Shown piece by piece: positions 481-61,600 of a DNA stretch of 64,000 bases. A model generated the notes under the pieces. The model made no database searches. It had not been told where the DNA came from and saw nothing but the letters and a program-made list of their open reading frames with translations. The translations under genes and the position numbers were made by a program. The DNA is from an uncultured Acidobacteriota bacterium (GTDB taxonomy: Bacteria; Acidobacteriota; UBA6911): NCBI GenBank assembly GCA_963827655.1, contig CAWHCF010000038.1, forward strand, positions 64,001 through 128,000, in the 5' to 3' direction. Each line of letters starts with the position of its first letter. Position 1 is the first letter of the stretch.

Positions 481-518
481 CAACCGCCAAGACACCAGGA
501 CACGAAGAAACGCTAAGA
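481..518 (+). repeat. Intergenic octamer-array repeat copy
   Basis: CAACC-GCCAAGAC-ACCAGGAC-ACGAAGAAAC-GCTAAGA, 4 nt after stop codon. Confidence 0.85.
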
Positions 519-547
519 TCCACTGCCTCACGCGAACGGAGAAAAAG

Positions 548-1748
548 ATGCTCAGACGGTTTGCTGTAAAAGGCGCCCTGTTGTTTGTCCTGCTCCTGAC
601 TCTTTCACCCTCCCACGGATGGGCGCAAGGATCTGAGTATATTTTCCCCCACATGGTTGATGGCGAGTCCGGGACCATCTTCTACTCCACATCCTTTCTG
701 CTGAACAACGCTTCCAACCTGGTCACCTCGGTGACGATTCGTTTCTTCCGCTCGGACGGAACTCCATGGATGGTGGATCTTCGGAGTTTCGACAGAAACG
801 AATTGGCAGGAAGGGTGTCATCGCGGATGTTTAACCTGCAGCCGCGCGAAACAGTCGAGTTGTTTACGGGCGGGGCTGATCCTCTTGCCGCAGGATGGGC
901 CAAGATCGATTCCGGCATGGCGATTGAGGCATCCGAGGTCTTTGGAGTATTCAACAAAAGCCCGGTATTTCTTCGTTCCGAAGCGGGCGTGCTCCCGGCG
1001 CCCGCCGCGACGCTGCACACCCTTTATACCAGCGTCTCGACCGACGAGCCGACCATGGGTACCAACGTCGACACGGGAGTCGCCATTGCCAACCTGAGTG
1101 GAGCCCAGGCGATGGTCACGGCAACACTGTTTGATCGCGCAGGCGTGCAGCTCACTCAAGGAACGCTGAGACTCGAACCCAACCGTCACACCGCCATGTT
1201 TGTCTCGCAGATCTTCAACAACTTCACTTTCTCCGGCCGGTTCCATGGGATGGTGCGATTTTCAAGCAACACCAATATCGCGGTCGTAGGCTTGCGTCAG
1301 GCCTTTGGGGCCAGTGACACCATCTCCACATTAGCCATCAACCCGGATTCGACCCTCGGACGTATTACGGTTTACGACCGGGAGCCCAACGATTCGCGCC
1401 CTCAAGCACAGTCGCTCGGTTCGTTGCCGGCCGAAATCATCGGCACGATGAACACTCCAGCCGACGGAGGCGATACAGATCTGTTTTCTGTGAACCTTCA
1501 GGTCGGCGACGTGCTCTATGTGTTTGCCGTGGCAGACCTGATCGGTTCGCCCCTCGACGATGCCATCACAATCAGGGATAGCCTCGGTGCCCAGGTCGCA
1601 ACAAACGATAGTTTCTCGAACGGCTTGAGAGATCCTTTCATTCGATACCCGGTATCGGTAAACGGCGTCTATTACATCGAGCACACCGGCGCCGCCGGCA
1701 CCAGCATCGCGCAACGCTCACTACCGCCTTCATGTCCTGGTGAGATAG
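548..1748 (+). CDS. Secreted protein: acidobacterial-type beta-rich N-terminal region plus C-terminal PPC (pre-peptidase C) domain; frameshift near 1705
   Basis: Signal peptide; EPND..QAQ and D.DLF PPC motifs; alternative frame reads SRNAHYRLHVLVR-TAG (1746-1748), a typical PPC end, so the ORF-track end at 1804 is probably artefactual. Confidence 0.65.
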
Positions 1749-1789
1749 GCTTTGCGTCCAAGGCGCAGGCGTTGGTAATTACGGTATCG

Positions 1790-1912
1790 TATTGGAGCAG
1801 CTGAGGCCTGGAGGGCCGATAGAGCCTGCGTGAGAAGCTGTGAAAATTGGCATTGGTCAGTAAGAACGGTTGCAAGCTCGTCGTGGCCCCGCAGAGGACT
1901 ACTGAACTTTCC
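1790..1912. repeat. Degenerate copy of the composite REP-like/MITE cluster also at 22110-22380
   Basis: Shared collinear blocks GCAGYTGAGGCCTGRARGGCCGAYAGAG, AGAAGCTGTGAAAA, GTTGCAA..CTCG, GGCCCC..ACTACTGAACT. Confidence 0.7.
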
Positions 1913-2325
1913 GGGCACAGGCGACAGCGGCCACGCAGAGTCTACGACAGGTCAAAAGTCAGATGCCACCGTGGTCGCTGGAAGGTTTTATGCACACGTT
2001 CTGCAGGGCCGGGCGAGACTTGCAAGACTCACCGACGCCCGAGGCTCACGGTCAATCGGACCGTGCGCTGAACTGTTCCGCACCTTCTGCGGCGGCTTGC
2101 AGATATCGGTCCGAAGCCGAGAACTCGTACTTCCACTGTGCCGCACCCGGCGCTCGGGTCTAAAGCGAACTCTGCCCGGCCTTACTTCGGGCCTTTATCA
2201 GCGGTTTCAGGTCAGCCGTGATCTATGAACCCAGGCGCCTGGACCGCAGGCAATGTGGCAGGATTGAGTTCACCCATTGGAGTAGACTATACTTGTCGGC
2301 CAACGGATCCGTCTCCCCTTTCGCC

Positions 2326-3111
2326 ATGCAAATGAAGGAAAGCCCCTGGAAGACCATTCGCATAGTCGCCGGCGGGCTTTCGCTCTGCGTCGCGCTGGTC
2401 TGGATCGCCCTTCTCTGGCCCGAGGTGTTTACGCTTCCTGGAGTTTCGGCCCATCTTCCGCCGCAGTTTGCCATGCCTCCCATGTACCCGCTCCTGGAAC
2501 TGCTCAAGCTCGCAGTTGCGGCTGTTCTGGGCCTGGTGGTCACAGCGGTGCACAAGCGCTATCACCGCGATAAGCCGCTCAGCCGCTCGCTGGAGCAGGC
2601 TCAGGTCTTGCTGGGTGTCGCGGGGGCGATGATCGTGATTATCATCGGCGATTCCCTCGCCCGCGCATTCGGAGTCCTGGGAGCGGCCAGCATCATCCGG
2701 TTTCGGACCCCCGTCGAAGATCCGAAAGACACCATTATCCTCTTCCTGCTGCTGGCTCTCGGCATGGCTTGCGGTCTTGGGGCTTTCGGCACAGCGGCGC
2801 TTGCAGCTCTCTTCATCTGTGTCGTCATGCTGGTGCTCGACCACATCGGCGAGCAGAAACCACGCCCCATGATGCTGGAACTGGTGGCCGCCGGCCGTGA
2901 GTTTCCCACGCAGCACGTGCAGAACGTTTTCGCCGCGTACGGCATGGCTTTCGAGCCGCGCGAAGTTTCGCAGGGTGATCAGGCAAGTATCAAATACCAC
3001 GTCATGTTAGCCCCCAACACCTCACTGGAATATCTCAGCGACCAATTGATAAGCGGCGGCTACTCAGGAATCAAGTCCGTGACCTGGGAATCCCCCAAGA
3101 AGAGCGGCTAG
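2326..3111 (+). CDS. DUF4956 (MgtC/SapB-like) membrane protein
   Basis: IIGDSLARAFGVLGAASIIRFRTPVEDPKD..LF..LALGMACG signature; start at 2326 or 2332 more plausible than 2218. Confidence 0.85.
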   Translation: MQMKESPWKTIRIVAGGLSLCVALVWIALLWPEVFTLPGVSAHLPPQFAMPPMYPLLELLKLAVAAVLGLVVTAVHKRYHRDKPLSRSLEQAQVLLGVAGAMIVIIIGDSLARAFGVLGAASIIRFRTPVEDPKDTIILFLLLALGMACGLGAFGTAALAALFICVVMLVLDHIGEQKPRPMMLELVAAGREFPTQHVQNVFAAYGMAFEPREVSQGDQASIKYHVMLAPNTSLEYLSDQLISGGYSGIKSVTWESPKKSG

Positions 3112-3113
3112 CA

Positions 3114-5398: not shown

Positions 5399-5413
5399 CC
5401 GGGCAAAAGAGAC

Positions 5414-5436
5414 GACCGCCAAGACTCAAAGACGCC
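5414..5436 (+). repeat. Octamer-array repeat copy (short)
   Basis: GACC-GCCAAGAC-TCAAAGAC-GCC. Confidence 0.7.
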
Positions 5437-7167: not shown

Positions 7168-7206
7168 CTTTTGGCGTTTCTTCGAGTCTTTGAGTCTTGG
7201 TGGTTG
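7168..7206 (-). repeat. Octamer-array repeat copy
   Basis: Reverse strand reads CAACC-ACCAAGAC-TCAAAGAC-TCGAAGAAAC-GCCAAAAG. Confidence 0.85.
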
Positions 7207-8430: not shown

Positions 8431-8501
8431 TGCTTGACTCCGCCGGGATTTTCTCACGGATTATCGGATCGATACAATCGTGGCGCAGAGCTGTCTAACG
8501 A

Positions 8502-8540
8502 ATACCACTAAGACTCAAAGACGCGAAGAAACACAAAGAA
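8502..8540 (+). repeat. Octamer-array repeat copy
   Basis: ATACC-ACTAAGAC-TCAAAGAC-GCGAAGAAAC-ACAAAGA. Confidence 0.85.
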
Positions 8541-9573: not shown

Positions 9574-9902
9574 TGTCTTGCTCTCCAGAACCAGGCCAGA
9601 GGCGGCGTTCGGGAAAACGTGCTCGAAGAATTCAAGACTGCGCGGCGGAAATGCCGCGGCGCCGGACTTCTCCGCACCGGTCCTTCATGTGTTGATTCCG
9701 CGGGATGCCAATGCCGGGCCGAGAACCCGCGAGACTAGCCGAAAGCCTTCTCCTTCTTTCCCGGGGGGCCTGAGATTCGGGGGGCATGACCATCGGGTCA
9801 ACATGTGCAGTGTTGACTCTGTAGAATCATAGTTCAGGCGCTTCATCCGGACAAGTGTGGACCTGATGGAGTTGAAAACCGAAAGCCGCAGGCAGGTATG
9901 AT

Positions 9903-9932
9903 TTTCTTGGCGCCTTTGCGTCCTGGCGGTGA
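9903..9932 (-). repeat. Octamer-array repeat copy
   Basis: Reverse strand reads TCACC-GCCAGGAC-GCAAAGGC-GCCAAGAA. Confidence 0.8.
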
Positions 9933-9950
9933 GTTGCGGTTGATCCACTA

Positions 9951-11933
9951 TCAGTAGAATCGGACATTGTCGAGCTCGAGCCAGCCGAAGCCACCGCCGG
10001 GCCGGGCGATCTCGAAGCTGAGCATCAGCAGGTCCGAGCCGGTCCAGGCCGCAGGCGACTGTGTCTTATCCTGCTCGAGCATCGCGAAATCAATCCGGAT
10101 GGTTTCCCAGCGGCTGGCGGCCTTGAACGGCGCCTGAAAATAGGCGTAGTTGCGCACCGAGCGCGTCGGCACAATGAGGCGATAGGAGAGGCCGTCGCCG
10201 CGGGCATCGAAGCGAATACCCCGAAAGGCTCTCGCATCGCCGGGCTCAAGCGCGCCGGGCGTGAGAGGCACACTAACGCGAACGAACGGGCGCTGGGCCA
10301 GCGACATGCGCGCCAGAATGGAGAGCGCGTAGCCGCCCTCCGCCCGCAGGATACGACCCATCATCAGACGGGAGTGGTCGTGGCCAGGATCGGTGCTGGT
10401 GATCCAGCGGGTGCCGAGAGCGCTGCGCGGTGAGTCGGTCGTGGGAGAAGCAATGCTTGCGTCGCCGGCGGTTTCAAAGTCATCAATTTTTTCCGAGACT
10501 TTGATCGCTTCAATCGGCGTGGGTTCTTTCGACGCGATCCGGCGCGCCAGGGACTCGCGGTCGATCTCGCGCCCGCCAAGAAAGACGCGCGCAATGCGTT
10601 CGATGTCGCTGATATTCTGATGGGGCGCCCCCGAGACAAGCACGAGGTCGGCCACCTTGCCGGCGGCTACCGAGCCGCGTTCATTGTCCACCCTCAGGGC
10701 TCTGGCGCTATCAAAGGTAGCGGCTGTGATGGCCTGCGCAGGCGAAAGCCCCCCTGCCACCAGCAGCTGCAGCTCGTGCAACGTCGCCCAGCCGTGATGC
10801 GTCCCCGTGACGCCTGCATCTGTGCCGACGCCAAGCCGGATGCCCGCGGTCTTGAGCGCCGAGACGTTATAGAGAAGGTTCCGCCAGCGTTGGCTTCGCT
10901 GTGCGGCGCTCGCGTTTTCGGAAGCATCGGGGCGAATCGTTCGCGCCGTCCTGGCAGTTCGTTGTTGTAGAGGCGCCTTTCCTCCCTCGTCCCGTGCGCC
11001 AGCGGCCGGGAGCGCCGGAGCCGCGGTTTCACGAACGGCCGGTTCGAGGACAGCCGGGAGCAGCGGTGAAAGAAGGTTGCGCCCGCGCGGTTCGTAAACC
11101 GCGAGCGTGGAGACGTAAGCCGTCCCGTTTGCGCGCATGAGCTCGATGACTTCGTTGTCGACTTCCCGGTCGCCGATGCCGTGCACAATCACGTCAACAG
11201 CGGCTCGAGCAGCCACTTTCGCGCGCTCCAGTGTGACCGTGTGGGTCAGCACCGGGACCCCGTTCTTGTGCGCTTCTTCCACCAGCGCTGAGAGCGTCTC
11301 CTGGTTCATGCTGGTCATGTCGGGGGCCGTGTTATAGCGCCAGCCGTCGGTGAAGACTTTAATTGCATCGGGTCGATAGGGGACGACCCGCCGGACTGCA
11401 TCGCGCGCTTCGCGCGGCGTCTGCGCTTCGAGGGTAAAAAAGTCGCCCCGCCCGCCTTCGGCGCCGTGTCCGCCCGGCGTAGTCATGCGGGCGGCAAGAT
11501 GGAGGCGTGGGCCCTCGATGGCGCCGCTGCCGAGCAACCGGCGCATCGGTTCAAAGGTTTCAGGGTAAGTGCCAAAATCCACAACGGAGGTGACGCCGCA
11601 GTAAAGGTAAGCGGCCAGGTGCTTGGGCCAGTCGCCGGTGATGCCCGGGAGGGTTGCATTGGGAAGATGGGTATGAAGATCGAAAAGGCCAGGCAAGAGG
11701 GTCTGCCCTTCGGCGCGGATGACGCGCGCGTCTTGGGGTAGAGCCAGGTTTGGCTCGACGGCGGCGATGCGGCCGCCGCGGAGAAGAACATCAGCCTGAA
11801 ACGGCGCTCTGCCGGTGCCATCCACAATGGTTGCGCCCACGATGGCAATGGCCGCGCCGCCCGGTTGTTGCTGTTGTTTCGCGACCCCGGGGAATAAGGA
11901 AATGAGAGCGAGTGCGAAAACAAGCGACGGCAT
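9951..11933 (-). CDS. Secreted amidohydrolase with C-terminal CIA30/CBM-like domain
   Basis: [27 protein letters not shown]; C-terminal [10 protein letters not shown]...WETIRIDF...LELDNVRFY; signal peptide from Met at 11933 (the ORF-track extension runs through a repeat). Confidence 0.85.
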
Positions 11934-11950: not shown

Positions 11951-11986
11951 CAACCACAGAGATGCAAAGACGCGAAGAGACGCGAA
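11951..11986 (+). repeat. Octamer-array repeat copy
   Basis: CAACC-ACAGAGAT-GCAAAGAC-GCGAAGAGAC-GCGAA. Confidence 0.75.
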
Positions 11987-12142: not shown

Positions 12143-12232
12143 TCTTAGTGTTTCTTCGCGTCTTCGTGTCTTCGTGGTTAGAGCTGGAAAACAAATACTT
12201 CCAGGATACAAAGACACAAGGAGACACGCAGA
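12143..12232. repeat. Inverted pair of octamer-array repeats (hairpin) abutting the rhodanese RBS
   Basis: TCTTAGTGTTTCTTCGCGTCTTCGTGTCTTCGTGGTTA ... ATACTTCCAGGATACAAAGACACAAGGAGAC, then AAAGGAGGA. Confidence 0.8.
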
Positions 12233-12243
12233 AAGGAGGAATT

Positions 12244-14081: not shown

Positions 14082-14120
14082 TCACCACCAGGACACCAAG
14101 ACGCAAAGAAACACAGCAGA
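14082..14120 (+). repeat. Octamer-array repeat copy inside an operon
   Basis: TCACC-ACCAGGAC-ACCAAGAC-GCAAAGAAAC-ACAGCAGA. Confidence 0.85.
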
Positions 14121-15315: not shown

Positions 15316-15340
15316 TCACCACAAAGACGCAGACGCCAGG
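15316..15340 (+). repeat. Octamer-array repeat copy (degenerate)
   Basis: TCACC-ACAAAGAC-GCAGAC-GCCAGG. Confidence 0.6.
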
Positions 15341-15484
15341 TCTTTGAAGAATTCCTGAAATAAGTCGCGCTGACAGGAAACTATGAACGCTAAAGCTGCC
15401 TTCGCTCGGGTCGGTGATCGCTTTGGTACTGGTTTCCATCCGGTGGTATCCTGGATCGCGACAGATTCAAGGAGGAAGCAGGCG

Positions 15485-16036
15485 ATGGCCACAAGAGTCC
15501 GGCTTACGGCTGAAGATCTCTGGCGAATGGCGCCCGCGGAAGTTCGCCGGGAGTTGGTCGACGGCGAAATCGTGGAGATGCCCTTGAACAACGCGCGCCA
15601 TGGGGAGGTCGCCACGATACTGGCGCACGCGTTAGTCGAACATGTGAGAAAGTGCGGTGGTGGGAAAGTCATGTGCGAAGTGGGTTTTGTGCTTCAACTT
15701 CCCTACGATCTGGAACAGGTGCGGTGTCCCGATCTGGCTTTCATATCGGACGCGCGTCTCGCGGGCCGTCCGCTTCCTCAGAAATTCTTTCCTGGTCCTC
15801 CCGACCTGGCGGTTGAGATTCTTTCACCGTCCGACGCCTCCGTGTATGTCCAGCAGAAAGTGCGAGATTATATCGAGGCGGGCGTACGCCTGGTCTGGCT
15901 ATTGGTCCCACAGTCGAAGACGGCGACAGTCTATCGAGCCGACGGTTCGGCCCGCCTGCTTCGCGAGCGAGATAGCCTGGAGGGTGAGGACATCCTGCCA
16001 GGGTTTACCTTTCGTCTTTCGGCCCTGTACGACTGA
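15485..16036 (+). CDS. Uma2 family (PD-(D/E)XK) endonuclease-like protein
   Basis: ELVDGEIVEM, PDLAFIS, PDLAVEILSPS, K..DY..AGV.LVW, LEGEDILPGF; AAGGAGG RBS before ATG 15485. Confidence 0.92.
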   Translation: MATRVRLTAEDLWRMAPAEVRRELVDGEIVEMPLNNARHGEVATILAHALVEHVRKCGGGKVMCEVGFVLQLPYDLEQVRCPDLAFISDARLAGRPLPQKFFPGPPDLAVEILSPSDASVYVQQKVRDYIEAGVRLVWLLVPQSKTATVYRADGSARLLRERDSLEGEDILPGFTFRLSALYD

Positions 16037-16056: not shown

Positions 16057-16136
16057 TCTTGCTGTTTCTTCGTGTCTTTGAGTCTTAGCGGTATTTCTTC
16101 GACACTCTAATCACGAAGACACGAAGACGCTAAGAA
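16057..16136. repeat. Inverted pair of octamer-array repeats
   Basis: TCTTGCTGTTTCTTCGTGTCTTTGAGTCTTAGCGGTAT ... TAATCACGAAGACACGAAGACGCTAAGA. Confidence 0.85.
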
Positions 16137-16148
16137 ATGGTGGTTAGT

Positions 16149-17780: not shown

Positions 17781-17848
17781 TCGTGTCTTTGGGTCCTCGT
17801 GGTTATTGGTTAGTCCGCTCCAACCACGAAGACACGAAGACACCAAGA
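17781..17848. repeat. Inverted pair of octamer-array repeats
   Basis: TCGTGTCTTTGGGTCCTCGTGGTTA ... CAACCACGAAGACACGAAGACACCAAGA. Confidence 0.85.
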
Positions 17849-18002
17849 AGTAATACGAAGGAATTGTATGAATTGTTTGTGTCGCCGCAGCGACGCCTTT
17901 TCCAGGAGGACGGCAGGCGATCTAATTCGGGCAGATAGTTCCAGGTGTGATGGTGCGTTAGATTGCGCGCCCGAGGATTGCGTTTATTCAGGAGGATGAG
18001 TC

Positions 18003-19040
18003 ATGCGTCCAGTGAGACGTCCGGTATCGATGATCGTGATGGCTTTATTTACTGCGGGCCTCTCGATCCTCGCGGCTCCGCCAACGCCTATCGAGCGATT
18101 GCGTCTTCAGATTACGCGCGCGATCCCTGCTGCCCAGGGAGAGATAGGAGTCGGAGTCAAGCATTTGGAGAGTGGAGTCGAGCTGTTCGTCAGTCCCGAC
18201 GAACCGTTCCCTATGGCGAGCACGTTCAAGCTGCCGGTCCTGTTGGAGCTTCATGCTATGGCGAAGTCCGGCGCTCTCAAATGGGATGAGATTATCGACA
18301 TCGGACCTCGCGACCAGCACCTGGGGAGCGGGGAGTTGTCGGTGCTTTACGATCTTCCCGGGGTCCGGCTCTCGATGCATAACCTGGCGAATCTCATGAT
18401 GATGATCAGCGACAATTCTGCCGCCGACATCTGCCTGGCCAAAGCCGGCGCCAAGAACGTGAACGCGCGGCTAAGCGCGCTGGGTGTGAGCGGCATCCGC
18501 GTCGACCGGTCGTGCCAGGAGTTGATCCTCGATTACCGCGGACACGACACGGAACGTTTAAAAGGGCTGGCTCTAAAAGAACTCCGCGCGGCCCTCCCCC
18601 GCTCGCCAAGCGATGAGCAGTCGCGCTGGACGGCGGATGACCGTTTTGCCAAGGATCCAAGGGACACCGCAACTCCACGAGGGTTCGTGACCCTGCTCGA
18701 GAAGATCTGGCGCGGTGAAGTCATCGACAAAGATGCATCGCAGGCTATCCTGAACTTGATGAAACGCTGCCGGACGGGTGAGAACCGGATTCGGGGACTT
18801 TTGCCTGCAGAGACCGAAGTCGGACACAAGACCGGGACCATTGGGGGCGTTGTGAATGATGTCGGAATCGTCTATCTCCCCGACGGCGCCGGCCACGTGG
18901 CGATTGCGCTTTTGAGCAAGCGCACCAGGGCGAGCACCGAGCAGGTGGAAAAAACTCTGGCCCAGATTGCGCGCTACGCCTACGACTACTTCTACTTCAC
19001 GTCGGGCTCATCCGAGCAACCGAGCGCGGGCCGGCAATGA
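18003..19040 (+). CDS. Class A beta-lactamase-like serine hydrolase with atypical omega loop
   Basis: FPMASTFK (SxxK), SDN, HKTG; signal peptide. Confidence 0.88.
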   Translation: MRPVRRPVSMIVMALFTAGLSILAAPPTPIERLRLQITRAIPAAQGEIGVGVKHLESGVELFVSPDEPFPMASTFKLPVLLELHAMAKSGALKWDEIIDIGPRDQHLGSGELSVLYDLPGVRLSMHNLANLMMMISDNSAADICLAKAGAKNVNARLSALGVSGIRVDRSCQELILDYRGHDTERLKGLALKELRAALPRSPSDEQSRWTADDRFAKDPRDTATPRGFVTLLEKIWRGEVIDKDASQAILNLMKRCRTGENRIRGLLPAETEVGHKTGTIGGVVNDVGIVYLPDGAGHVAIALLSKRTRASTEQVEKTLAQIARYAYDYFYFTSGSSEQPSAGRQ

Positions 19041-19045
19041 GGTAA

Positions 19046-19136
19046 TTCTTGGTGTTTCTTCGTGTCTTCGCGTCTTTGTGGTATTTGTTCCGCAGCGCTA
19101 ACCACGAAGACACGAAGACGCAAAGAAACGCGAGGG
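19046..19136. repeat. Inverted pair of octamer-array repeats between convergent genes
   Basis: TTCTTGGTGTTTCTTCGTGTCTTCGCGTCTTTGTGGTAT ... TAACCACGAAGACACGAAGACGCAAAGAAACGCGAGGG. Confidence 0.9.
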
Positions 19137-19149
19137 AATACTCTGATGC

Positions 19150-20697: not shown

Positions 20698-20737
20698 TAA
20701 GACGAAGCTTTCATGCCAAACCAGGAGGGAACAAACT

Positions 20738-28335: not shown

Positions 28336-28339
28336 TTCT

Positions 28340-39419: not shown

Positions 39420-39443
39420 TTGTTTCGCGGCGCTTTCCGCTTG

Positions 39444-41081: not shown

Positions 41082-41089
41082 GGACGTCC

Positions 41090-45700: not shown

Positions 45701-46122
45701 CTCTTCTCTGTTTGAAGCGTGACGGCCGCCGCCTCGACGGTTACCTGTTCGGTGAGCCCCCCGACCTCGACGCTGAGGTCTACCCGGGTCACGATGTTCG
45801 CCCTTATCTCGACGCCCGTTTGACGAGCCTCCTTGAAGCCTGTCAGCCTGACGGTCAGGGTATACCTTCCACTCTGGAGAGTGGCGAAGGTGTACCGGCC
45901 GGCGTCATTGGTGATTGCCTCGCGAGCGTCGTTGGTCTGCTCGTTCAGAGCGGTCACGGCCGCTCCTGGAACAGCGCCACCCGAGCTGTCGCTTACGTTA
46001 CCGGTGAGTCCGCCGTAAAGAACCTGGGCCTGTGCAGTTTCTTGAGTAACCCAGGTCAGCAAGAGAAGAGACAGACCGGACACCAAAAGCGCTGTGGACG
46101 ATTTCTTGATCAGGTAGAGCAT
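42798..46122 (-). CDS. TonB-dependent receptor (Oar-like, N-terminal carboxypeptidase-regulatory-like domain); frameshift near 43470
   Basis: Signal peptide; G.V.DSSG..VPGA.VT, TKSGTN..HGS, LGLRYE, NFAPRVG.AY, terminal RQIRFALRLEF. Confidence 0.92.
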
Positions 46123-46741
46123 GGCTCCTCCGCTTCACCATCCAAGAGTCGACGAGGTTTTTATGCTTGTGTGAAAGACTGGTTGTGGCATCGTACGGCT
46201 CCTTCAGCAACCGGTGTCGGTCCTGAAAGTCCACTGTGTAGACGGCCGCTAACCCACTACCTAGGGTGGCCTAGGATTGCGCATCATTAGTGAATCTGTC
46301 AAATGAATAACTATCGAAAATAAGGGGCGTCTCCTATTTTTATCGTTGGTGGCCATCGATTGGATGGCCATTCAGATAGTCGCTGGCATGAACGAAGGCT
46401 TGTCTCGCGGTCTCTGGAGAAGCGGGGCCGTTTGTTTGTCAAAGCCGCTGAATTGGTCGTCGCTGCTTTGTCCTTCCAGGACACAGTCTGTGATTTGGCT
46501 GTTTCGCGGATGCCGACATACAGACCTAAAGCCATGTCTGTCGAACAGGCTGGTGAGCCGGTTCATCCGCAGTAGCGCCCGTCGCGGCGCTCCGCACCTC
46601 AAGATGTTTAAACTCCATCCATTGTTCCTCCGGGGCAAAGCGCGGACAAAGCTGAGTCGCACTTCTAATCGCACTCCAGGAAGAAGACGGCGCAGCACAG
46701 AGCTAACCCATAGAATGGTCAGCGGTCAGAGTGCCGAATGA

Positions 46742-48253
46742 TCAAGGCGGGGTGATTGTAGCCTCTTTTTCGAGCTGCTCTCTCTCAAGCTGGAGGGTCT
46801 TCTGGATCTCCTGGTATTTCTGGAGCATCTGACCCGCTAGCTCGCGCTGGCCAGTGCTGCGGTAGGCTTGAGCCAGCTGGTAGAGCAGACTTCCATCATT
46901 GTCCAAAACCAGAGCTGATTTCAGATGAGGAATGGCCTTGGCGGCCTCCCCGAGGGTAAGGAAGGCCCGCCCCAGAGAAGAATGCGCCGGCGGGAAAGTC
47001 AGGATCATACTCCACAGCCTTCTTCAAAAAAGGAACGGCTTCACCGGGCCGCTGTTGATTCAACAGGATGTCCCCTGCCAGGTAGTTCACTTGGGCCGAA
47101 TTGGGCTCTTCCGTCAGAAGGCTGTCCACCAGCGGTTTGGCGGCATCATAGTCGTGAGTCAGGATCAATGAAACGGCCAGTTCCTTCCTGGCGTGGGGTT
47201 CCCGGGAGAGATTTCGAGCGCCTTCTTCCATTCATTAACCGACTCCACGTGCCGTCCCTGATTTCGATGGATTTCGGCCATCACCTCATGCATTTCGAAA
47301 GAAGGGGGGAGTTTAGCCAGCCTCGAGAGAGCGTCGAGCGCAAGCGCATTATAGATCTGTGATCGCCAATAATACGATTCAGGCGTCTGCTTGTTCTTGA
47401 CGGCGTCCAGGGCTTCCCGAAAGCGGCCTGCCAGGAAATCACAGACTACCTTCTCGGAATTGCAATCCGGCAATCCGAGCTGCATTTCCTTTTCTTCCTC
47501 CTGCGTTGCCCATTCGGCGTGGCCCGTCCTTCGGTAAATCTGGCTCAGGGCCATATGGATCCCCCGCATTTTCGGCTGTTTCTCGAGAGCCTTGCGGTAA
47601 AAAAAGAAGGCGCTGCGATACTGCTGTTGTACCGCCCGCGTGTCGGCCACCAAGGCAAGCCAGTAAGCCGATTCGGGAGCGATTTTCTCGAGCCTCTCAA
47701 AAGCTCTTCCCGCCAGTGCCTCGTAAGATCTTCCCAGGCCGTGCCAGGCCTTGGGGTTTTCGGCCTCGAGCTTCGTCAGAGCGTCATACTGCTCAGCAGC
47801 CTGCTCGAACCTTTCCACGGCGAACAGGGCATCCCCGAGCAATTGCCGTCCCCTTGGATCCTTCCCATCCTTTCCAACATACTTCTGCAAGGACGGAACC
47901 GCTCGGGCTGGATTTCCCAGCCTTTGTTCACTTGCCCCAAGAAACAGAAACGCCTGCGTCATCTCCGGATTTGCTTTTACGGCCGCCTCGAGGTGCCGGA
48001 TCGAGTCCCGGTATTGACCTGCCATGTAGTGGGCGATTCCCAGGTTCATCCTCAATCCCGCTTCACCGGGCAAGACTTTGATCAGCTCCTGGTAGATGGA
48101 AATCGCCTCTTTATACTTGCCCGCGCTCATTGCCTCGCGAGCCCGTTGCGACTTTGCCGCCAGCTCATCGGACTGCCCGACTGCCCAGGCGCCATTTGAA
48201 AGCAGAAGGGCGCAGACCAGGAGAAACGGCGAGAGGAGCTTTCTTTCACTCAT
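46742..48253 (-). CDS. Secreted TPR protein; frameshifts near 47190 and 46985
   Basis: Three overlapping ORFs with TPR helices; signal peptide. Confidence 0.82.
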
Positions 48254-50177: not shown

Positions 50178-50192
50178 CGACTACTCTCGAAA

Positions 50193-50236
50193 CCTCGCGT
50201 CATTGGGTCTTCGCGGTTGGTCGCCGCAGGACGCAA
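50193..50236. repeat. Degenerate inverted pair of octamer-array repeats
   Basis: Reverse strand reads CAACC-GCGAAGAC-CCAATGAC-GCGAGG; forward TCGCCGCAGGACGCAA. Confidence 0.6.
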
Positions 50237-50267
50237 TTGTGAATGGACGTTTCATTAGATCCACGTT

Positions 50268-52790
50268 TCGAACGTCAGTGACCGGTCGGAACGACGAGGG
50301 ATCGTAGAAGGGTTGTCCCGGGCCGACCCCTCCCAGTTTCGTGATGGGTCCAACCTGATCGGCCGTCTGGGTGTTGCCAGGAGCGTTGAGCGAAGCGCCC
50401 GAAGCAGTCACGTTGAACGGCCTACCCTGAATCGCACTCCAGATCCCGTTAAGTTGCCATCCCTTGATCAGCTGATTGGCCAGACCGCCGCCGTTCTTTC
50501 CAAACGGAAGCTCGGCGACAAATCCGAGCTGAAGCATGTGAGGGATATTGAAACCAGCCTGAGCACGATTGCGGTTCAGGACCGAAGGATGGTTGAACGT
50601 CAGCCCGGTCCAGCCATCATCATCCGCCCAGTTGATCGCTTTCGAATAAGTATAGGCGCCTTTCAGGAATAGGCCTTTGGTGAAAGGCCGGTTGACTGCC
50701 ACCTGCAAGGCGTGGTAGTTCGCGCTCAGCCAGCCGTCCCACTGGAGCGTGGCAGACGTGCGTCCGAACACAGGCGCATAAGGCCGGCCGGAATTACCCT
50801 GACCAGGGCCCGCAGCGTTGAGCTCAAGATCGGCAAACGATCGGGTCGTTTGTGAGCCGACGTACGCGGTCGATACCACGAGATCCAGCGGGAACTTGCG
50901 CTCGAATGACAGGTTCCAGGATTGAATATATCCCCTGTCAATCTGATCCGGGTAAGGGGTCCGCATGTCGACTGTCGGAGGCAGATCAACCAGACCCGTG
51001 TTGAGGTCGGGCCCCGTGAATTCGGGTATCCCCAGGGCGATCGACCGGAAAGGAACGAACGCACTGGGTCCGACAAAATTCTGAGCGACCACGAGGGGAT
51101 AAAAGCCTCGAATCGGACGAGCGAACGGCATAGGGTTGTAGGTGAGACCATAGCCGGTTCGAATCACGGTGCTGTCTCCCAAGCGATAGGCGAGGCCGAA
51201 GCGCGGAGCTAGGAGTTTTTTGCTGGTCTTGATCCCAAGATCCTGGGGGTTTCCACCCCGGTCGCCGAGTTTCACTTTCATTGTGGAAAGGTCGAGCAGC
51301 TCAATGCCGCGGTCCGCGCGATGCATCAAAGGATAGAGCTCGTAGCGCAGCCCGAACGACAGGGTCAGGTTGCGGCTAGCCTGCCAGCGATCGCGGAAGT
51401 ACCAGGCGAACTGCCATTCGCGCCCGGTCATCAGCTCATACTGCAGGCTCTTGTCCATGGAGGCGGGAAGCCCGAGCAGAAAGGCCGCATACGCATTGAA
51501 TTGATTGGGCGAGCGCGCTCCGCCCCGCAGGGCGGTAATGTCACCAGGGAAGACAAACCGTCCCCTGGGCCCGCCGAGTTGCTCCGGCTGCCAGTGATTC
51601 AGCTCGTGCCGGACTAGATCAAAACCCCATCGGTATTCATGCGCGCTCTGAATCCGGGTGAAGTTGACGGTGCCGGTGTAGCTCTTATCATTGCGCTCAG
51701 CCGGCATCCAGTTAAAGGTGTTGCCCAATGACGCATAGCTGGTGATATTAAAGGCAGGCAGGCCGCTTTGCTTCGGATCGCTGCCGTTCGTGCCGGGAAT
51801 GCCGAGCACTTCGAGTCCGAAGTTCTGCCCCAAGTCCGGGGGTGTGCCGGTCTGGTCCATCCGGGTAATTCCGAAGGTCCCATCCACAATCATCCTGGGA
51901 CCCATGGTCCAGGTAGTACCGATGGTTCCTACATAGACCTTGGTATCGCCAACACCGGCGCCGCCATCGCATAAGCAGCCGCCTCCGGCCTGCCCAAGGG
52001 CGTATTCACCGCTGACCTGGGCATCCATCATGCTGAACTTGGCCCAGACCTGGTGGGCGGTGGTGCGGTTCCAGTTTAACTTGACGTCGAAGTTATCCCG
52101 GTTCATGGCCTGGGTAGCCGACCGAGAGTAGTTATTGGTCACGCCGGGAAGATTGGGAAGTGGAACGAGGTCCTGCATCTTACGGGTGATCGGACTGATC
52201 CGGTTCTGGCGGAATAATGTTATTTGGAAACGGGATGCGATCCGGAGCCATCCGGATTTCCGCTCAGCGGGTCGTAAATGATGGTGTCGTAACGTGCTGA
52301 AATCCCCTCGACGCTGATCTTGGGGTTGCAAGCGTGAATCGAGTGTTGAAGCCGCGGGCCACCCGCTCGCGCGTCCCCTCCCAGCCGCCGAAGTAGAAGA
52401 GTTTGTCCTTGACGATCGGCCCGCCCAGCGTAAAGCCGTCGATGTTCTGAATGCTGTTGGGCTTTTTGAGCCCCGCCGGGAGAAAGAAGTTCTTGGCCCG
52501 CACAGCGCTGTTGTCATGCAATGCGAAAAGCGAGCCGTGAAGGTCGTTGGTTCCCGCTTTGGTGACCAGGGTAATGGCCGCTCCCCCTGCCATGCCCTGC
52601 TCGGCATCAAAGTTGTTCGTGCTGATATTCACCGTCTCGATGGTTTCTGCCGGCGCCACGTAGGCGGTGTGGTGCGGCAGAAAGATGAAAACACTGGTCG
52701 AGCCGTCGATGCGAGTATTGTTGTTGTTGCGGTTGGTGCCGTTTACGTTGGTCGTAAGGGCCCGCGCAGGTGTGTCAGTGTTGGCATCTT
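50268..52790 (-). pseudogene. Second TonB-dependent receptor, truncated at both ends and frameshifted
   Basis: Collinear with the 42798-46122 gene from TPARALTTNVNGTNRNNN to FRPVTDVR; signal peptide, N-terminal domain and final barrel strands absent. Confidence 0.8.
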
Positions 52791-52921
52791 GTCAATTTAC
52801 CTGGCCGAAATGTGCCACAGGACTCTCGATCTCTTCAACATCTAAAGAATAAGCTCGCTTGAAGGTCATTCTCGGCATGAAGCCGCTCCCCGGAACCTGT
52901 GCTATCGTATAGACCGCAAAG

Positions 52922-54374
52922 ATGAATCCGAGTCGTCGCATGATTTTCCCCTTGAATCTGCCTCACTGCCGTTTCCGTATGGCGCCTATCATGGGGTTCT
53001 CGTTCGTCCTGACCCTCTATGCCGGCGTGATTCCACCCCTGCCCAAGCTGCCTCTCGAAAGTTTCACATCTCCTATGCGCGAGCAGATTCAGGAGGCATT
53101 TGAGGATGCCGTTCAGAATCCGGAACGGGCGGAAAATAACGGGCGCCTTGGGATGCTTCTCTATGGATACGAGCACTTCCAGTTTGCCGAGACGTGTTTC
53201 GAGCGCGCCCGGGCCTTTGATTCCAACGACAAGCGCTGGGCTTATTACCTGGGGAGGACGCAGGCGGCGCTGGGGAAGCACGATCAGGCGGCTATCTCCT
53301 TGCGAGAAGCGCTGCGCCAAAACCCCGACTATCTTCCCGCAGAGCTGTCCCTGGGCGAATCTCTCCGTGCTGCGGGCCAATTGGACCAGAGCCGAAAAAC
53401 CTACCAGGCGGTTGCAGAGAAGCATCCCGAAGCGGCCGCGGCCTACTACGGGTTGGGCAGAGTTCTGGCCGTCCAGCGTGAGACTGCGCGTGCCATCGAG
53501 TTTTTCCGGAAAGCTTGCGACCTCTTCCCGAGTTTCGGCGCCGCCCATTATGCGCTTGCCCTTGCCTACCGCGATCTAGGCGACCGGGCTAAGGCTCAAG
53601 AACACCTGGCTTTCTATCAAAAGGACAAACTGAGCTGGCCTCCGACGCCGGATCCGCTGCTCAGGGCGATCGACGACCTCAAGACCGGAGCGAGCGTCCA
53701 TCTCAGGAAGGGAGTCCGCCTCGAAGCGGTCGGGCGAGATGCAGGCAGCCGTCGAGGAACACGAACGGGCCCTTGAGGCCGATCCAAAACACGCTCAGGC
53801 TCGTGTCAATCTGATTACGCTGTATGCAAAGCTGGGCCAGACGGAGAAAGCAGAGGAGCATTATCGCGCGCTTCTTGCGATCGACCCGAACCTTGTGGAA
53901 AGCCATTACAACTATGGAGTGATGCTGACCGGGCAACAAAAGTACAAAGAAGCGGCTGAAGCTTATCGCCGGGCTTTGGAGATAAACCCGTACTATGCCG
54001 ATGCGCACAGCAACTATGCCTATCTGCTCATGGTCGAAGGGCGGCTGGATGAAGCCGCGGAGCACTACCGGGCCGCCATCGCAAACAAGCCGAACCACCG
54101 GCTCGCTCACTTCAATCTTGGCCGGATCCTCGTGCATCAGGGAAAGGCCCAGGAAGCAGTCAGTCATTTTCTTCAAACATTGACACCGGAAGACGAAAAC
54201 ACTCCCCGTTACATGTATGGCCTCGGCGCCGCTTACGCGCGCGCCGGCGATCGCAAGAGCGCCTTGAAATACATGCGCGATGCGCGGCAGCGGGCCGTGA
54301 CTCTCGCTCAGTCCGAACTGCTCAAGTCCATAGACAAAGACCTGGCGGTCCTGGAACAGGGGGAGAATCGGTGA
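52922..54374 (+). CDS. TPR protein; frameshift near 53735
   Basis: ORFs 52922-53776 and 53739-54374 carry consecutive TPRs; stop overlaps the next start (GTGA); true start may be 52979. Confidence 0.82.
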
Positions 54375-56200
54375 CCGGAGCCTTTTCTCGCGGCAGCGGG
54401 TTCCAGACTGAGGATTGCGACAGTCGAAAAAGGGCACCGGTAGTCTACTCTCTCCTCGTCATCGCCGGAGTCGGCCTGCAGATCGGTTTCCTGCGGCCTT
54501 CCCCAGCCTACGTGGGGAACGCCGGCGCCCGGGCGCAGGAAAAAACCGCCGCGGCGCCGATCTTCCGCGAAGTGGCCGCTCAAGTGGGACTCAATTTCCG
54601 TCATTTTACGGGAGCTACGGGCGAGTTTTACATGCCCGAAATCATGGGTTCAGGAGTCGCCCTGTTCGATTTTGATGGAGACGGCGACCTGGATGTGTAC
54701 CTGCCCCAGGGTACTCTGGTCGATACGACCAGGCGCCCTGCCGACGCCCTCTTTCCGCCACCCCCCGGTCAGCCGCGTGGCCATCGATTGTTCCGCAATG
54801 ATCTGAATCCTGGCGGAAAGCTTCACTTTGTGGACGTCACCAAGCAAGCGGGGGTCGAGCGCGAAAGTTACGGCATGGGGGGTGCGGTCGGGGACTACGA
54901 TAACGATGGCGATCTCGATCTCTACGTGACCAACTTCGGGTCCAATGTCCTTTATCGCAATAACGGCAATGGCACCTTCGCCGACGTCACGCGGGAAGCG
55001 GGAGTGGATGACGAGCGCTGGAGCTCGAGCGCAGCCTTCCTGGACTACGATCGCGACGGCGATCTCGACCTGTTTGTGGCGAACTACATCGACTTTACCA
55101 TCAAGGGAAACCGCAAATGCTTCGCGGCAACCGGGGAGCGAGACTACTGTACCCCCAGCATCTACCGGCCTGTTCCCAGCCGTCTATTCCGAAACGAAGG
55201 AGCCGGGAAGTTCGCGGACGTCACCGGGACAGCCGGCATCGGGAATGCCTTTGGCCCCGGATTGGGAGTCGTGTGCGCAGATTTCAACGGCGATGGCTGG
55301 CTGGACGTCTATGTCGCCAACGATGGCGCCGCGAACCTGTTATGGATCAACAAAGGGGACGGCACTTTCGAGGAATCGGCTCTCCTCTCCGGGGTCGCGT
55401 ACTCCGCCGACGGAGTGGCCCGGGCGGGCATGGGTGTCGGATGCGGCGACTTCGACAACGATGGCGATGAAGATGTTCTGGTTACGAACCTTCGAAGAGA
55501 AGGGAGTACGCTGTACCGAAACGACGGAAAGGGCCTCTTCCTTGACGCATCGGCCGAATTCGGGCTGGCCCACACCAGCTTTCTTTCGACCGGCTTTGGT
55601 ACCGGTTGGTTCGACTACGACCGCGATGGACGGCTGGACCTGTTTACGGCCAATGGCGCCGTGACGCTGCTCGAGACGCTCAAAGGAACCCCCTACCCGT
55701 TCGCACAACGCAACCAGCTTTTTCATAACGAAGGGGAGAACCGGAAGTTTGTGGAAACCACAGCGGCGGCAGGGCCGGCGCTGGCGCTGGTCGAGGTCGG
55801 ACGGGGAGCGGCCTTCGGCGACATCGATAACGACGGAGATGTCGATATTGTCGTGAGCAACAACAACGGCCCCGTGAGGCTGTTGCGCAACGAAGCCGGC
55901 TCCGGAAATCACTGGCTGGAAGTTCGTCTCGAGGGGATAAAAGATAACCGGAGCGGTCTGGGAGCGCGGGTGGCCGTTCTCCGAAAAGGGATGCCGGCAC
56001 TCTGGCGGCGATGCTCGACCGACGGCAGCTACCTGAGCGCAAGCGACGCCCGCGTCCATTTCGGACTGGGCAAGGTCGCGGCACTCGAGGCCGTGGAAGT
56101 CTACTGGCTCAACGGGGATCGCGAAGTCTGGAGGGACATCAAAGTCGATTCCAGCGTAACCCTCCGCCAGGGCTCCGGGAAACCGGTCACACCGCCGTAA
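54371..56200 (+). CDS. CRTAC1 family protein (FG-GAP plus ASPIC/UnbV)
   Basis: DFDGDGDLD/DYDNDGDLD repeats; NRSGLGARV, GSYLSASD.RVHFGLG. Confidence 0.92.
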   Translation: MTGAFSRGSGFQTEDCDSRKRAPVVYSLLVIAGVGLQIGFLRPSPAYVGNAGARAQEKTAAAPIFREVAAQVGLNFRHFTGATGEFYMPEIMGSGVALFDFDGDGDLDVYLPQGTLVDTTRRPADALFPPPPGQPRGHRLFRNDLNPGGKLHFVDVTKQAGVERESYGMGGAVGDYDNDGDLDLYVTNFGSNVLYRNNGNGTFADVTREAGVDDERWSSSAAFLDYDRDGDLDLFVANYIDFTIKGNRKCFAATGERDYCTPSIYRPVPSRLFRNEGAGKFADVTGTAGIGNAFGPGLGVVCADFNGDGWLDVYVANDGAANLLWINKGDGTFEESALLSGVAYSADGVARAGMGVGCGDFDNDGDEDVLVTNLRREGSTLYRNDGKGLFLDASAEFGLAHTSFLSTGFGTGWFDYDRDGRLDLFTANGAVTLLETLKGTPYPFAQRNQLFHNEGENRKFVETTAAAGPALALVEVGRGAAFGDIDNDGDVDIVVSNNNGPVRLLRNEAGSGNHWLEVRLEGIKDNRSGLGARVAVLRKGMPALWRRCSTDGSYLSASDARVHFGLGKVAALEAVEVYWLNGDREVWRDIKVDSSVTLRQGSGKPVTPP

Positions 56201-56236
56201 CCAGCGAAGACTCGAAGACACCAAGAAACGCCGAAG
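56198..56236 (+). repeat. Octamer-array repeat copy overlapping the TAA stop
   Basis: TAACCA-GCGAAGAC-TCGAAGAC-ACCAAGAAAC-GCCGAAG. Confidence 0.85.
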
Positions 56237-59428: not shown

Positions 59429-59499
59429 GCTAGCTCCCCCTCTTAGAACGGGCTCATCTTAGGAACGTCTGCACAGTATGGCTCAAAGAACCGGGGTGC

Positions 59500-59529
59500 A
59501 TCTTACATCCCACCCCTTGGTCGAGTCAA
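59500..59529 (-). promoter_or_regulatory. Sigma70-type promoter candidate TTGACT-N18-TAAGAT
   Basis: Upstream of ATG 59428, which has an AGGGGGAG RBS. Confidence 0.5.
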
Positions 59530-59534
59530 CCTCA

Positions 59535-59673
59535 TAAGCGCAAAGACGCCAAGACGACAATTTTCTTAGGCGCTTAGCGAAACGTTCAAACCAACATGTT
59601 GTCGTTCAGAAGGGGCCTTCGTTCGGGGCGAAGTCCCCGAACGAACCTTAGCGCCCTGGCGTCTTTGCGGTTG
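59535..59673. repeat. Octamer-array pair containing copy 2 of the ~110-bp dispersed repeat
   Basis: GCGCAAAGACGCCAAGAC ... CTTAG-[element with perfect 11-bp stem TTCGTTCGGGG/CCCCGAACGAA]-CTTAG-CGCCCTGGCGTCTTTGCGGTTG. Confidence 0.9.
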
Positions 59674-59683
59674 AAAAAACAGG

Positions 59684-61527
59684 TTAGGGTTTTGCGGTCA
59701 TCACCCGCCGGAGTTCTTCAATCCGTCCCTTGTAGCGTCCATCCCGGTCATTTGAAGCCAGCAGGCGCAGCTCTTCCTCGGCTTCCGCGAACCGTTTGTC
59801 GCCGACCAGGGCATAGGAGAGAAGATACCTGATCTCGAGAACATCCGGCTTCTCGGATTTCAGATTCTCGAGTAATACCCGGGCCGAGCCGTAGTCTTTC
59901 TGCTGGAGCTGAAGGGTGGCGACGGTCTGCCGCGCCGGCCAGTACTCCGGCTTCAGCCGGATTGTCTCCCGAAACTCAGCCATGGCTTCCGCCAGGTTTC
60001 CCTCAAGGATTGCCAGGTTCCCGAGATTATGATGCGCCTGCCAGTTTGAAGGATCGACCTTCAGGGCTGCGCGATAGTAGCGCCGGGCTGATTCGAATCG
60101 GCCTTCGGTCTGTTCCAGCCACCCCAGGTTGTACATGGCAGGAGCGTGATCGGGACGCAGCTCGAGGGTCCTCAGGAATTCGCTGCGGGCCCGGCCTCGA
60201 TCGACTCCCAGATAGGATACGCCAAGGTTGTAACGAACCCGGGCCTTACCCGGGGCTTTCATCACCGCGTCCGTCCAGAGGCGGACATTGTTCCCCCACA
60301 AGGAAAGTCCGCTTTTTCGATGCTGCGGCGTATCCCACCAGGAGAAAAAGCGCGCAGATCGCAAACGCGGCCTCGCGCCACCTGCTGGTCTTGAGAATGC
60401 TCCCCACGACAGCGATGAGCGCCAGAGCCAGGACAATCGAACCCGTGATCATGGGAAGGTAAAGCCTGTGTTCAAACATCAGATCCGCGCTGGGAATGAG
60501 AGAGGAGGTGGGGGCAAGGAATATAAAAAAGGCCAGAACCAGGAAAGAGGTCGAGGGCGACCAGGTCCGTAGCCTCACCGCCACGGCCAGCACGGTAATC
60601 AGAAGCAGCGCGCAGAACCAGAAATAGCTCGACCGGGGCGAGACGGCCATGAAATCATGGTCCACGGAGAGGCCTGCCGGCCAGAGCACGAGCCGCAAAT
60701 AAGTCACTAGAACGGTCACCTGGCTGGTCAGGTAGCGCAGCGGGCCGCTTTGCAGCAAGCCCACGGTACGATCTCCGATGCTATAGAGGTTGTAGAGAAT
60801 GTAAGCGGCGCCGCCAAGCGAAAGGGCGCCCAGCGCCACAAGAAACCGGCGGACGGCGGGCGAACTCCTGAGGGGCTTGGGTTCTTTCTGGTAGCACCAG
60901 CTATAGGTCAGCAGCACCAGGGGGAGGACCAGGGCGGATTCCTTGCTGGCTGCGGCAAGGATGAAAAGAAGGCCGGCAAGCAGAAGAAAGGGACCTCGAC
61001 GCCGCGGCTCGCTCCGACCAGACGAAGGCGCTGATCGCTGCGATGGTGAAAAAAGCGGCTAGTAGCGTGGAGCGTTGATAGATGTAATTAACGGCGTGGC
61101 TTTGAATCGGGTGCAACGCAAAAATGCCGGCAGCCGTGAACGGCAGCCAGCGCCGGATCATCATGTTCGACAAATCTGATTTGGCCGCACACAGGAGGCG
61201 AACCAGAAGATAGATGCCAAGCGCGTTCGCCAGGTGGACGATCAGGTTAAAGAGGTGATACCCCGCTGGATTCTTTCCCCCCAGCCGGTAATTCATGAAG
61301 AGGCTTAGATAAGTCAGCTGGCGGCTCTGTGAAGGTTTGAGGAGGAAGAGAGGATCGCCGGGTTCGGTCACCTGCGTGCTTGCCAGGAACAGGGCATCGT
61401 CAAAGTGAAACGGGTTTTTCAGGCAACCCCAGTAAGCCCACAGCGTCAGGACCAGGAGCGGCGCGATTTCCGCAGCGCGCCATATCGAGTGCGGATTGTA
61501 GGTTGCAAATTGCCGGTCGGTAGCCAA
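59684..61527 (-). CDS. TMTC-like GT-C membrane glycosyltransferase with C-terminal TPRs; frameshifts near 60990 and 60290
   Basis: FHFDD, GYHLFNL..H..N, FALHPIQ..AV.YI.QR, LSVDH, EHRLYLP, then TPRs. Confidence 0.82.
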
Positions 61528-61550
61528 CGCAGGACTCTTTCTCGGTTCCG

Positions 61551-61600
61551 GTCTTCGCGGTAGACGACAACAGCAGGATCGCCCCGAAGACGCCAGGACA
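61551..61600. repeat. Highly degenerate octamer-array pair
   Basis: GTCTTCGCGGTAG ... CCCGAAGACGCCAGGAC. Confidence 0.4.

Follow-up and report, generated by a model that had tools for sequence, protein, structure and literature searches.

The window, i.e., the whole 64,000-nt stretch of DNA analyzed here (positions 64,001–128,000 of contig CAWHCF010000038.1, assembly GCA_963827655.1, from an uncultured Acidobacteriota bacterium of lineage UBA6911), contains a dispersed family of short polar repeats, termed arms. Each arm has an ACC head followed by two to four units of the form D-C-V-A-R-G-A-C, often with a single 9-nt step. The family is real, widespread, and tied to an uncharacterized nuclease, GxxExxY, and it is apparently undescribed. 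The association between the arm and the GxxExxY gene is strong and is established in other genomes; from it, we infer binding, cutting, and movement by the enzyme. The best reading of the window arms is that they are non-autonomous ends of a GxxExxY element, and the enzyme-plus-arm arrangement suggests self-spreading DNA of a kind not yet described.

Arms in the Window

A position weight matrix (PWM) was trained exclusively on 160 arms of other genomes with the window left out, which avoids circularity. Scanning the window with this matrix gave 27 arms at ≥14 bits versus a mean of 0.375 in 40 shuffles, and a degenerate 17-mer matched 25 times versus a mean of 0.13 in 100 shuffles. The midpoints of 26 of the 27 PWM arms are non-coding, and non-coding DNA makes up ~11% of the window (coding, ~89%); gene starts were adjusted by hand where the longest open reading frame (ORF) overran an arm. 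Enrichment over coding and shuffled sequence, proposed as a check in a preliminary description made from the letters alone, is thus observed. With degenerate partners added, the total is 34 arms at 25 loci. All of the 24 loci listed in that description hold the motif, and a 25th lies at 20452. Its statement that every copy is intergenic stands for the 26 midpoints but not for arm 20452, which overlaps the last codons of a YjbR gene. The first three bases of each unit had also been described as variable; C at position 2 is actually near-invariant (0.96–0.98), and the variation lies at positions 1, 3, and 5.

An arm is present in 24 of the 33 gene gaps longer than 35 nt, namely 10/11 and 5/9 co-directional, 4/6 convergent, and 5/7 divergent gaps. 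The copies are dispersed one per gap on either strand, in agreement with the initial view that both strands are used and that the repeat is not a CRISPR. A same-strand stop codon lies within 21 nt before the head in 10 of the 34 arms and within 15 nt in 5; the earlier remark that many copies start within about 15 nt of a stop therefore describes only these five, and divergent gaps, which have no neighboring stop codon, are occupied as well. A match to a catalogued repeat family had been named as a possible refutation, and Rfam at gathering thresholds gave no match across the window. In blastn searches against plasmids and phages, the best pair found matches only at E values of 3–4. Separately, a second ACC-like head occurs 4–11 nt upstream at arms 7204, 9930, 17803, 29742, 31681, 37600, and 50217.

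Inverted pairs take in 16 of the 34 arms, at five head-to-head and three tail-to-tail loci. The head-to-head gaps are 18, 17, 19, 18, and 19 nt, i.e., all five are within 17–19 nt. The best pair (19040–19145) folds into a long hairpin (−55.3 kcal/mol, z −8.85); single arms show no folding (z +2.2 and −0.6), and the decayed doublet at 39350–39430 folds no better than shuffles (z +0.46). The previous conclusion that the repeat is not a palindromic REP is right for single arms but misses the inverted doublets, which are the main anatomy, as in REPINs. Four head-to-head pairs and three unpartnered type-A heads have a common linker (seven copies), in which seven conserved bases are followed by three variable and then eight partly conserved ones. 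Its column identities run 1.0/1.0/1.0/0.71/0.86/1.0/1.0 and then 0.43/0.57/0.43, and columns at 0.57 also occur in its second half. The linker found no match in 130 other loci and hence marks a local subfamily. The interior of the composite at 59537–59671 recurs beside arm 22550, with 91% identity over 87 nt. The arms of the window, with one gene listed for context, are as follows.

481–518 (+): solo arm, four units; head 5 nt past a cyclase stop
5413–5435 (+): solo arm, two units; 16 nt past a porin stop
7169–7206 (−): solo arm, four units
8486–8539 (+): type-A arm, head 8504; head-to-head linker retained, partner arm decayed
9906–9943 (−): solo arm, head 9930; additional head upstream
11951–11985 (+): arm facing arm 12178 across ~190 nt of a divergent gap
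12143–12233: head-to-head pair 12178(−)/12197(+); 18-nt linker, fold z −3.1
14082–14115 (+): solo arm; 5 nt past a cystathionine beta-synthase stop
15316–15340 (+): degenerate arm upstream of the Uma2 gene
15383–16036 (+): Uma2 (PF05685) gene between inward-pointing arms 15318 and 16092; context only, bracketing not above chance
16057–16137: head-to-head pair 16092(−)/16110(+); 17-nt linker
17781–17849: head-to-head pair 17803(−)/17823(+); 19-nt linker, fold z −3.4
19046–19136: head-to-head pair 19082(−)/19101(+), best preserved; 18-nt linker, fold z −8.85
20450–20477 (+): arm absent from the preliminary list; covers the last codons and stop of the YjbR gene
22443–22552 (−): arm (head 22550) fused to a ~85-nt palindrome-containing interior common to 59537–59671
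25427–25480 (+): type-A arm, head 25445; linker remnant
28340–28396: tail-to-tail doublet 28342(+)/28394(−); span 53, fold z −2.9
29740–29778 (+): solo arm, four units; 17 nt past a DUF1501 stop
31657–31683 (−): solo arm; 18 nt past a zincin stop
32136–32191: tail-to-tail doublet 32138(+)/32189(−)
37598–37630 (+): degenerate arm; 9-nt units, divergent gap
39355–39435: decayed tail-to-tail doublet 39357(+)/39417(−); right arm of type A with linker
50193–50219 (−): solo arm; ~55 nt beyond the break-off point of a TonB-receptor gene
56198–56235 (+): arm; head overlapping an FG-GAP/ASPIC stop codon
59535–59673: composite of inward-pointing arms 59537(+)/59671(−) with a ~90-nt interior between them; fold z −5.2
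61545–61600: degenerate head-to-head pair 61561(−)/61581(+); 19-nt gap, different linker

The Same Arm in Other Genomes

One scan of species genomes was made with a three-unit arm pattern, and all counts given for other genomes refer to the loci listed from it (L-numbers). The pattern occurs at no fewer than 119 loci; the matches listed span about 20 phylum-level names plus one archaeon, the names being those of the submitters' record titles, some of them apparently wrong. After overlapping loci (L003, L004, L026, and L063) were dropped, tail-to-tail doublets of 40–150 bp accounted for 146 of the 233 arms with tail-side room, and 74 short convergent elements were present in 61 loci. Doublets often lie within conserved operons, such as hisF-hisIE, secD-secF, trpD-trpC, and sufC-sufD (names inferred from Pfam families). 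Their loops differ in length and sequence, and five (L014, L048, L059, L091, and L107) contain nested arms of 9- or 10-bp variants. Ten head-to-head junctions were found: five, from Verrucomicrobia, Acidobacteria, and a cyanobacterium, measure 17–19 nt, and the others measure 10, 22, 26, 45, and 46 nt. In Sorangium (L007, L025, and L088), the doublets lie inside a ~190-bp repeat with CTAG at both ends, and their flanks are common for ~40 nt. Tandem amplification of arm-containing units was also noted (L028 at 9612–10025, L077, and L103; periods of 109, 53, and ~129 nt). No description of these repeats was found in the open literature; subscription journals and supplements lie outside this coverage.

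GxxExxY as the Partner Gene

Eight GxxExxY genes are present in the 76 long non-redundant loci, and all seven that were submitted were confirmed as TIGR04256. Five lie between inward-pointing arms (L006, L009, L025, L029, and L076), two are accompanied by one-sided arms or by closed doublets, and at the last the inverted array is of another kind; the window arm type adjoins the other seven. Viewed from the side of the arms, the association is specific. Among the 845 ORFs of ≥100 aa called heuristically in these loci, open inward-pointing arms bracket four, and all four are GxxExxY genes; no other gene is bracketed. The L029 copy is frameshifted and was missed by the ORF count, with the same layout. 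The link to GxxExxY that the preliminary description had tentatively drawn is therefore borne out, as is the co-occurrence with a nuclease that it had suggested looking for: of all families represented in the 147 nearest ORFs, PDDEXK_3 is the most frequent (5/147 versus 3/698 other ORFs, Fisher p = 0.005). Its tentative link to four-helix-bundle genes is not, though it may apply to other repeat types; four-helix-bundle, transposase, and Uma2 families are all absent from the 147 nearest ORFs by Pfam, where many neighbors have no match. Uma2 was considered as a local partner enzyme and rejected, given this absence and bracketing near chance in the window. A scan of the window ORFs gave no transposase or integrase family, and a tblastn search of phages gave no GxxExxY match.

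In a reverse test with eight plasmid GxxExxY genes picked by protein similarity, inverted variant arms were present on both sides of five (a count without a null). The remaining three have other short arrays, judged by eye, and the exact window arm is found at none of the eight. In a tree of 15 rows with one starred branch and arm labels assigned by eye, the four GGAT-type loci, from four phyla, form one clade (90/94), and the other branches are mostly unresolved.

GxxExxY comprises 15,218 clusters (50% identity) at E ≤ 1e-10. The catalytic residues are kept almost without exception among 242 single-domain homologs: E31 in 242, D71 in 241, E81 in 242, and K83 in 241. The structural model has a pLDDT of 94.7. 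It most resembles Cas4, restriction enzymes, and Hjc, though each match is weak on its own; assignment to the PD-(D/E)XK fold therefore depends on Pfam, on the catalytic residues, and on agreement among the top matches. Proteins of 240–295 aa carry two tandem GxxExxY domains (P0121–P0134 and others), which hints that the enzyme may act as a pair. Several GxxExxY proteins start with a short peptide that matches, by eye, the translated left arm (L025, L029, and L066). At L066 (9348–10135), the gene lies amid three doublets, and the 17 nt past the first doublet resemble the 17 nt past the last, both up to a start codon, as if insertion had brought a duplication.

Probable Double-Stranded Sites Rather than RNA Structure

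At the variable position, both arms of a doublet match in 0.54 of cases, versus 0.33 for arms shuffled across genomes. This agreement within an element is about the same as that between elements of one locus (0.50 vs. 0.44 and 0.59 vs. 0.42; 22 elements only). On the transcribed strand, G-U mismatches are no more frequent than A-C mismatches (13 vs. 16, p = 0.71, 27 elements). Hence, neither a G-U bias nor element-specific agreement was found that would indicate selection for base pairing, and a terminator or structured RNA finds no strand-specific compensation, with 5/7 divergent gaps occupied. The lack of a pairing signal suggests that each arm keeps the consensus independently, like a protein site in double-stranded DNA; judging from these sequence comparisons, the arms seem to be such sites, and pairing does not seem to be what is kept. 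Gene conversion between an element's two arms was considered and rejected: a 17-bp inverted-repeat extension is present at L076, and generally none exists beyond position −2.

Filled and Empty Sites

Comparison of orthologous gaps, which the preliminary description had proposed, revealed two variant-arm GxxExxY units that are absent from the matching gaps of relatives. The gap between radA and an FAD gene is 478 nt in Bacteroides finegoldii, with arms and GxxExxY, versus 13 nt in Parabacteroides distasonis. Similarly, fabD and fabG are separated by 464 nt in Sphingomonas parapaucimobilis versus ~30 nt in S. paeninsulae. Both empty gaps are without arms as well as without the gene. These cases support the initial suggestion of a spreading element. 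In a third relative, Phocaeicola, the radA gap holds a different gene, with no arms visible by eye, which indicates that this gap takes several kinds of insertion.

Proposed Mechanism and Alternatives

The arms probably form part of a selfish system: GxxExxY would bind the repeated units and cut close to the head, after which host repair would place copies of arms, or of the entire element, at other sites. Each ACC-headed array would be one end of a small selfish element, the complete form of which would be a GxxExxY PD-(D/E)XK nuclease gene flanked by two inward-pointing arms. The window would hold only nuclease-less derivatives (tail-to-tail doublets, head-to-head junctions, and solo arms), filling most intergenic gaps. 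The 8-bp units may serve as iterated double-stranded binding sites of the nuclease, which would nick or cut near the head, perhaps ~7–9 nt outside the ACC. The fixed 17–19-nt head-to-head gap suggests this position, and a fixed cut offset would explain both the 17–19-nt junction and its variable center. Such a junction may resemble the circle junctions of insertion sequences (IS). Host repair would then copy arms or whole elements to new places, selection would purge copies landing in genes, and the host genome would encode, or would formerly have encoded, a GxxExxY gene outside the window. As a more tentative proposal, the system may represent a new class of prokaryotic mobile element, whose sole enzyme is a minimal PD-(D/E)XK nuclease that recognizes its own 8–10-bp end arrays and cuts at a fixed offset outside the head, with host repair replicating the element and large numbers of its non-autonomous doublets across many phyla; in repeat-saturated genomes, the present one included, arms could also join end to end, rearranging or carrying whole genes.

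Several observations weigh against a GxxExxY-driven selfish system. For 71 of the 76 focal arms elsewhere, the nearest ORF is other than GxxExxY, and the window has no such gene, as had been noted at the outset: a six-frame motif search gave a single spurious out-of-frame string. In the window, no nearby partner accompanies 18 of the 34 arms, and the tail-side partner exceeds the 95th percentile of random sites for only 6. Since five of these six are in known pairs, the idea that solo arms are decayed doublets is unsupported. No target-site duplication was detected, the longest flank word in common being 3.73 versus 3.69 in shuffled pairs (73 elements), though in old copies a duplication could already have been lost. 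Nor was a sharp element end found, as same-genome identity upstream of the head decays gradually with no step; a universal end 7–8 nt outside the head would suit the window linker but was rejected for this stepless fading and for the Sorangium flanks, alike for ~40 nt. The empty-site cases involve variant arms and different species or genera, with junctions too distant for base mapping. The position of the Sorangium doublets inside a larger CTAG-bounded repeat means that the copy number can grow by hitch-hiking, so some of the spread is passive. Structural searches gave nothing at E ≤ 0.001 with Foldseek (best E 2e-3) and nothing at Z ≥ 8 with VIA-align (best 7.7, "common" level), and the tree is small and labeled by eye. 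Finally, a lone hydrolytic nuclease is not known to perform strand transfer.

Three other explanations were weighed. GxxExxY could be a homing endonuclease that cuts the empty loops of a pre-existing repeat and is copied by gene conversion with the arms as homology, the doublets having spread otherwise, whether through recombination by the host or by riding in other miniature elements. Variable loops, five of them with nested variant arms, would suit this scenario, as would the carriage of the Sorangium doublets in a CTAG-bounded repeat and the fusion of one window arm to a palindrome; moreover, the accessible part of PMC3943268 describes PD-(D/E)XK homing endonucleases. We consider it unlikely because the empty radA and fabD gaps are without arms besides the gene, the arm type appears to track the protein clade across phyla, and the fixed head-to-head gap is left unexplained.

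It is quite improbable that the arms are host-maintained regulatory or structural sites, such as terminators, mRNA stabilizers, or sites of chromosomal proteins, with GxxExxY as an incidental neighbor. The filling of 24/33 gaps, the 10 heads within 21 nt of a stop, and the strong folding of paired arms are what such sites would show. However, all four gap types are occupied, including 5/7 divergent gaps, solo arms are unfolded, and neither G-U bias nor compensation at the variable position was observed. Furthermore, the arms are patchy in ~20 phyla among the matches listed, beside unrelated genes, the bracketed genes are GxxExxY in 4/4 cases, and Rfam has no match. A host regulatory site is thus disfavored as the main role and possible as a secondary use.

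Least probable of all, the head-to-head junctions would be joints of arm-bounded cassettes through which arms capture and shuffle whole genes: the same-polarity junctions 16092, 17803, and 19082, in consecutive gaps, separate Uma2, a 546-aa ORF, a class A β-lactamase, and an outer-membrane barrel, the linker has conserved, variable, and partly conserved blocks in seven copies, and a TonB-receptor gene is truncated ~55 nt from an arm, but only 5 of 45 window genes (Uma2 and four unrelated ones) are bracketed, which is near chance (P = 0.12 and 0.077), three consecutive junctions have P = 0.055, columns at 0.57 recur in the linker's second half, the linker is unmatched in the 130 other loci, and none of the 845 ORFs elsewhere is a bracketed non-GxxExxY gene.

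Other Features of the Window

The gene content, with a Solibacter C-terminal domain, FG-GAP/ASPIC proteins, and TonB receptors, suggests an acidobacterium. The TonB-dependent receptor gene at 50270–52800 (−) ends ~80 aa short of its paralog at 42798–46122, and homology between the two ends ~55 nt before arm 50217; this shortening could reflect either a deletion associated with the arm or a fault in the assembly. Frameshifts interrupt many genes (32199–33496, 39400–41232, 42798–46122, 46700–48253, 50181–52800, 52922–54374, and 59684–61527), which suggests uncorrected sequencing errors. The class A β-lactamase-like gene at 18003–19040 (+), between two head-to-head junctions, matches NF033103 with an E value of 3e-49, below the curated cut-off. 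A second, GC-rich palindromic repeat family has three to four related copies (1801–1850, 22124–22176, 22342–22376, and 36096–36300), which may resemble REP. Immediately after arm 20452, nested inverted repeats (outer 34 nt, inner 25 nt) form a ~230-nt element at 20472–20701. A 65-aa ORF without a Pfam match at 28083–28340 (+) precedes a short frame that overlaps it and terminates close to arm 28342, perhaps an arrangement like that of an antitoxin with a truncated toxin gene.

Significance

The function of the very large GxxExxY family is unknown, and the arms now offer it a candidate substrate and a way to assay it directly. Should the nuclease be what moves the arms, intergenic DNA would be shaped by a second system of enzyme plus repeat that is independent of REP/RAYT, with a reach over Acidobacteria, Chloroflexi, PVC, and many other phyla, and the enzyme class involved would be one not expected to transpose alone. 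Such a system would also account for a common unannotated repeat in about three quarters of the window gene gaps. Arm variants that track protein clades would form a natural set of small sequence-specific nucleases.

Comparison with Known Systems

Unlike a CRISPR array, the copies are dispersed one per gap on both strands, with no regular spacing by unique spacers. With regard to an integron cassette array, in which recombination sites flank genes at a rate above chance alongside an integrase, 5/45 window genes are bracketed (P = 0.08–0.12), and the window ORFs scanned include no integrase family. For published systems, the comparison extends to the accessible parts of the papers cited. PF13366 (GxxExxY/PDDEXK_3) has been described as a family of unknown function with multiple transfers and mixed clades (PMC3424549), and the accessible part of that paper mentions no flanking repeats or mobile element; those of PMC3733652, PMC3943268, and bioRxiv 2021.01.26.428298 do not describe these repeats.

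As for bacterial miniature inverted-repeat transposable elements (MITEs), the portions seen of PMC3184786 describe short non-autonomous units with inverted ends and a variable interior, filled and empty sites, and fusion to ORF ends, all of which have counterparts here (the 74 short elements, window 59537–59671, and YjbR at 20452). Unlike such MITEs, the arms have no detected target-site duplication, their ends are degenerate periodic arrays, and many are solo or outward-facing. Among the nearest neighbors, to which this search was confined, no related DDE transposase occurs.

Free-standing homing endonucleases, including those of the PD-(D/E)XK class, as far as PMC3943268 was accessible, likewise are small nuclease genes in the gaps of conserved gene pairs; the active site of GxxExxY is intact (E/D/E/K in 241–242 of 242), and spread by cutting and repair is possible. 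The difference is that GxxExxY has its own inverted arms and that copies without the nuclease abound at unrelated sites, an outcome not produced by allele-to-allele homing.

The closest parallel is REPIN-RAYT, in which, in the accessible parts of PMC2817692 and PMC3116915, RAYT genes are flanked by inverted REPs and REPIN doublets are dispersed. Unlike a RAYT, which is an IS200-like HUH tyrosine transposase, the enzyme here is a ~125-aa PD-(D/E)XK nuclease (TIGR04256/PF13366), and the arm consists of a polar array of 8-bp units headed by ACC, whereas REP is, by the same sources, a palindrome with a GTAG (or CGTC) tag. In addition, the arms show no sign of base-pairing selection, and their range covers ~20 phyla among the matches listed, with clades mixed. 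The arm family is thus not a member of REPIN-RAYT by enzyme, tag, or palindrome. Its layout is nevertheless parallel: the enzyme gene has two inverted repeat copies (in other genomes, at L006, L009, L025, L029, and L076, not in the window), enzyme-less extragenic doublets, singlets, and tandem clusters are numerous, and the repeat type appears to follow the enzyme clade. Doublets take in 146/233 arms elsewhere versus 16/34 in the window, there mostly head-to-head.

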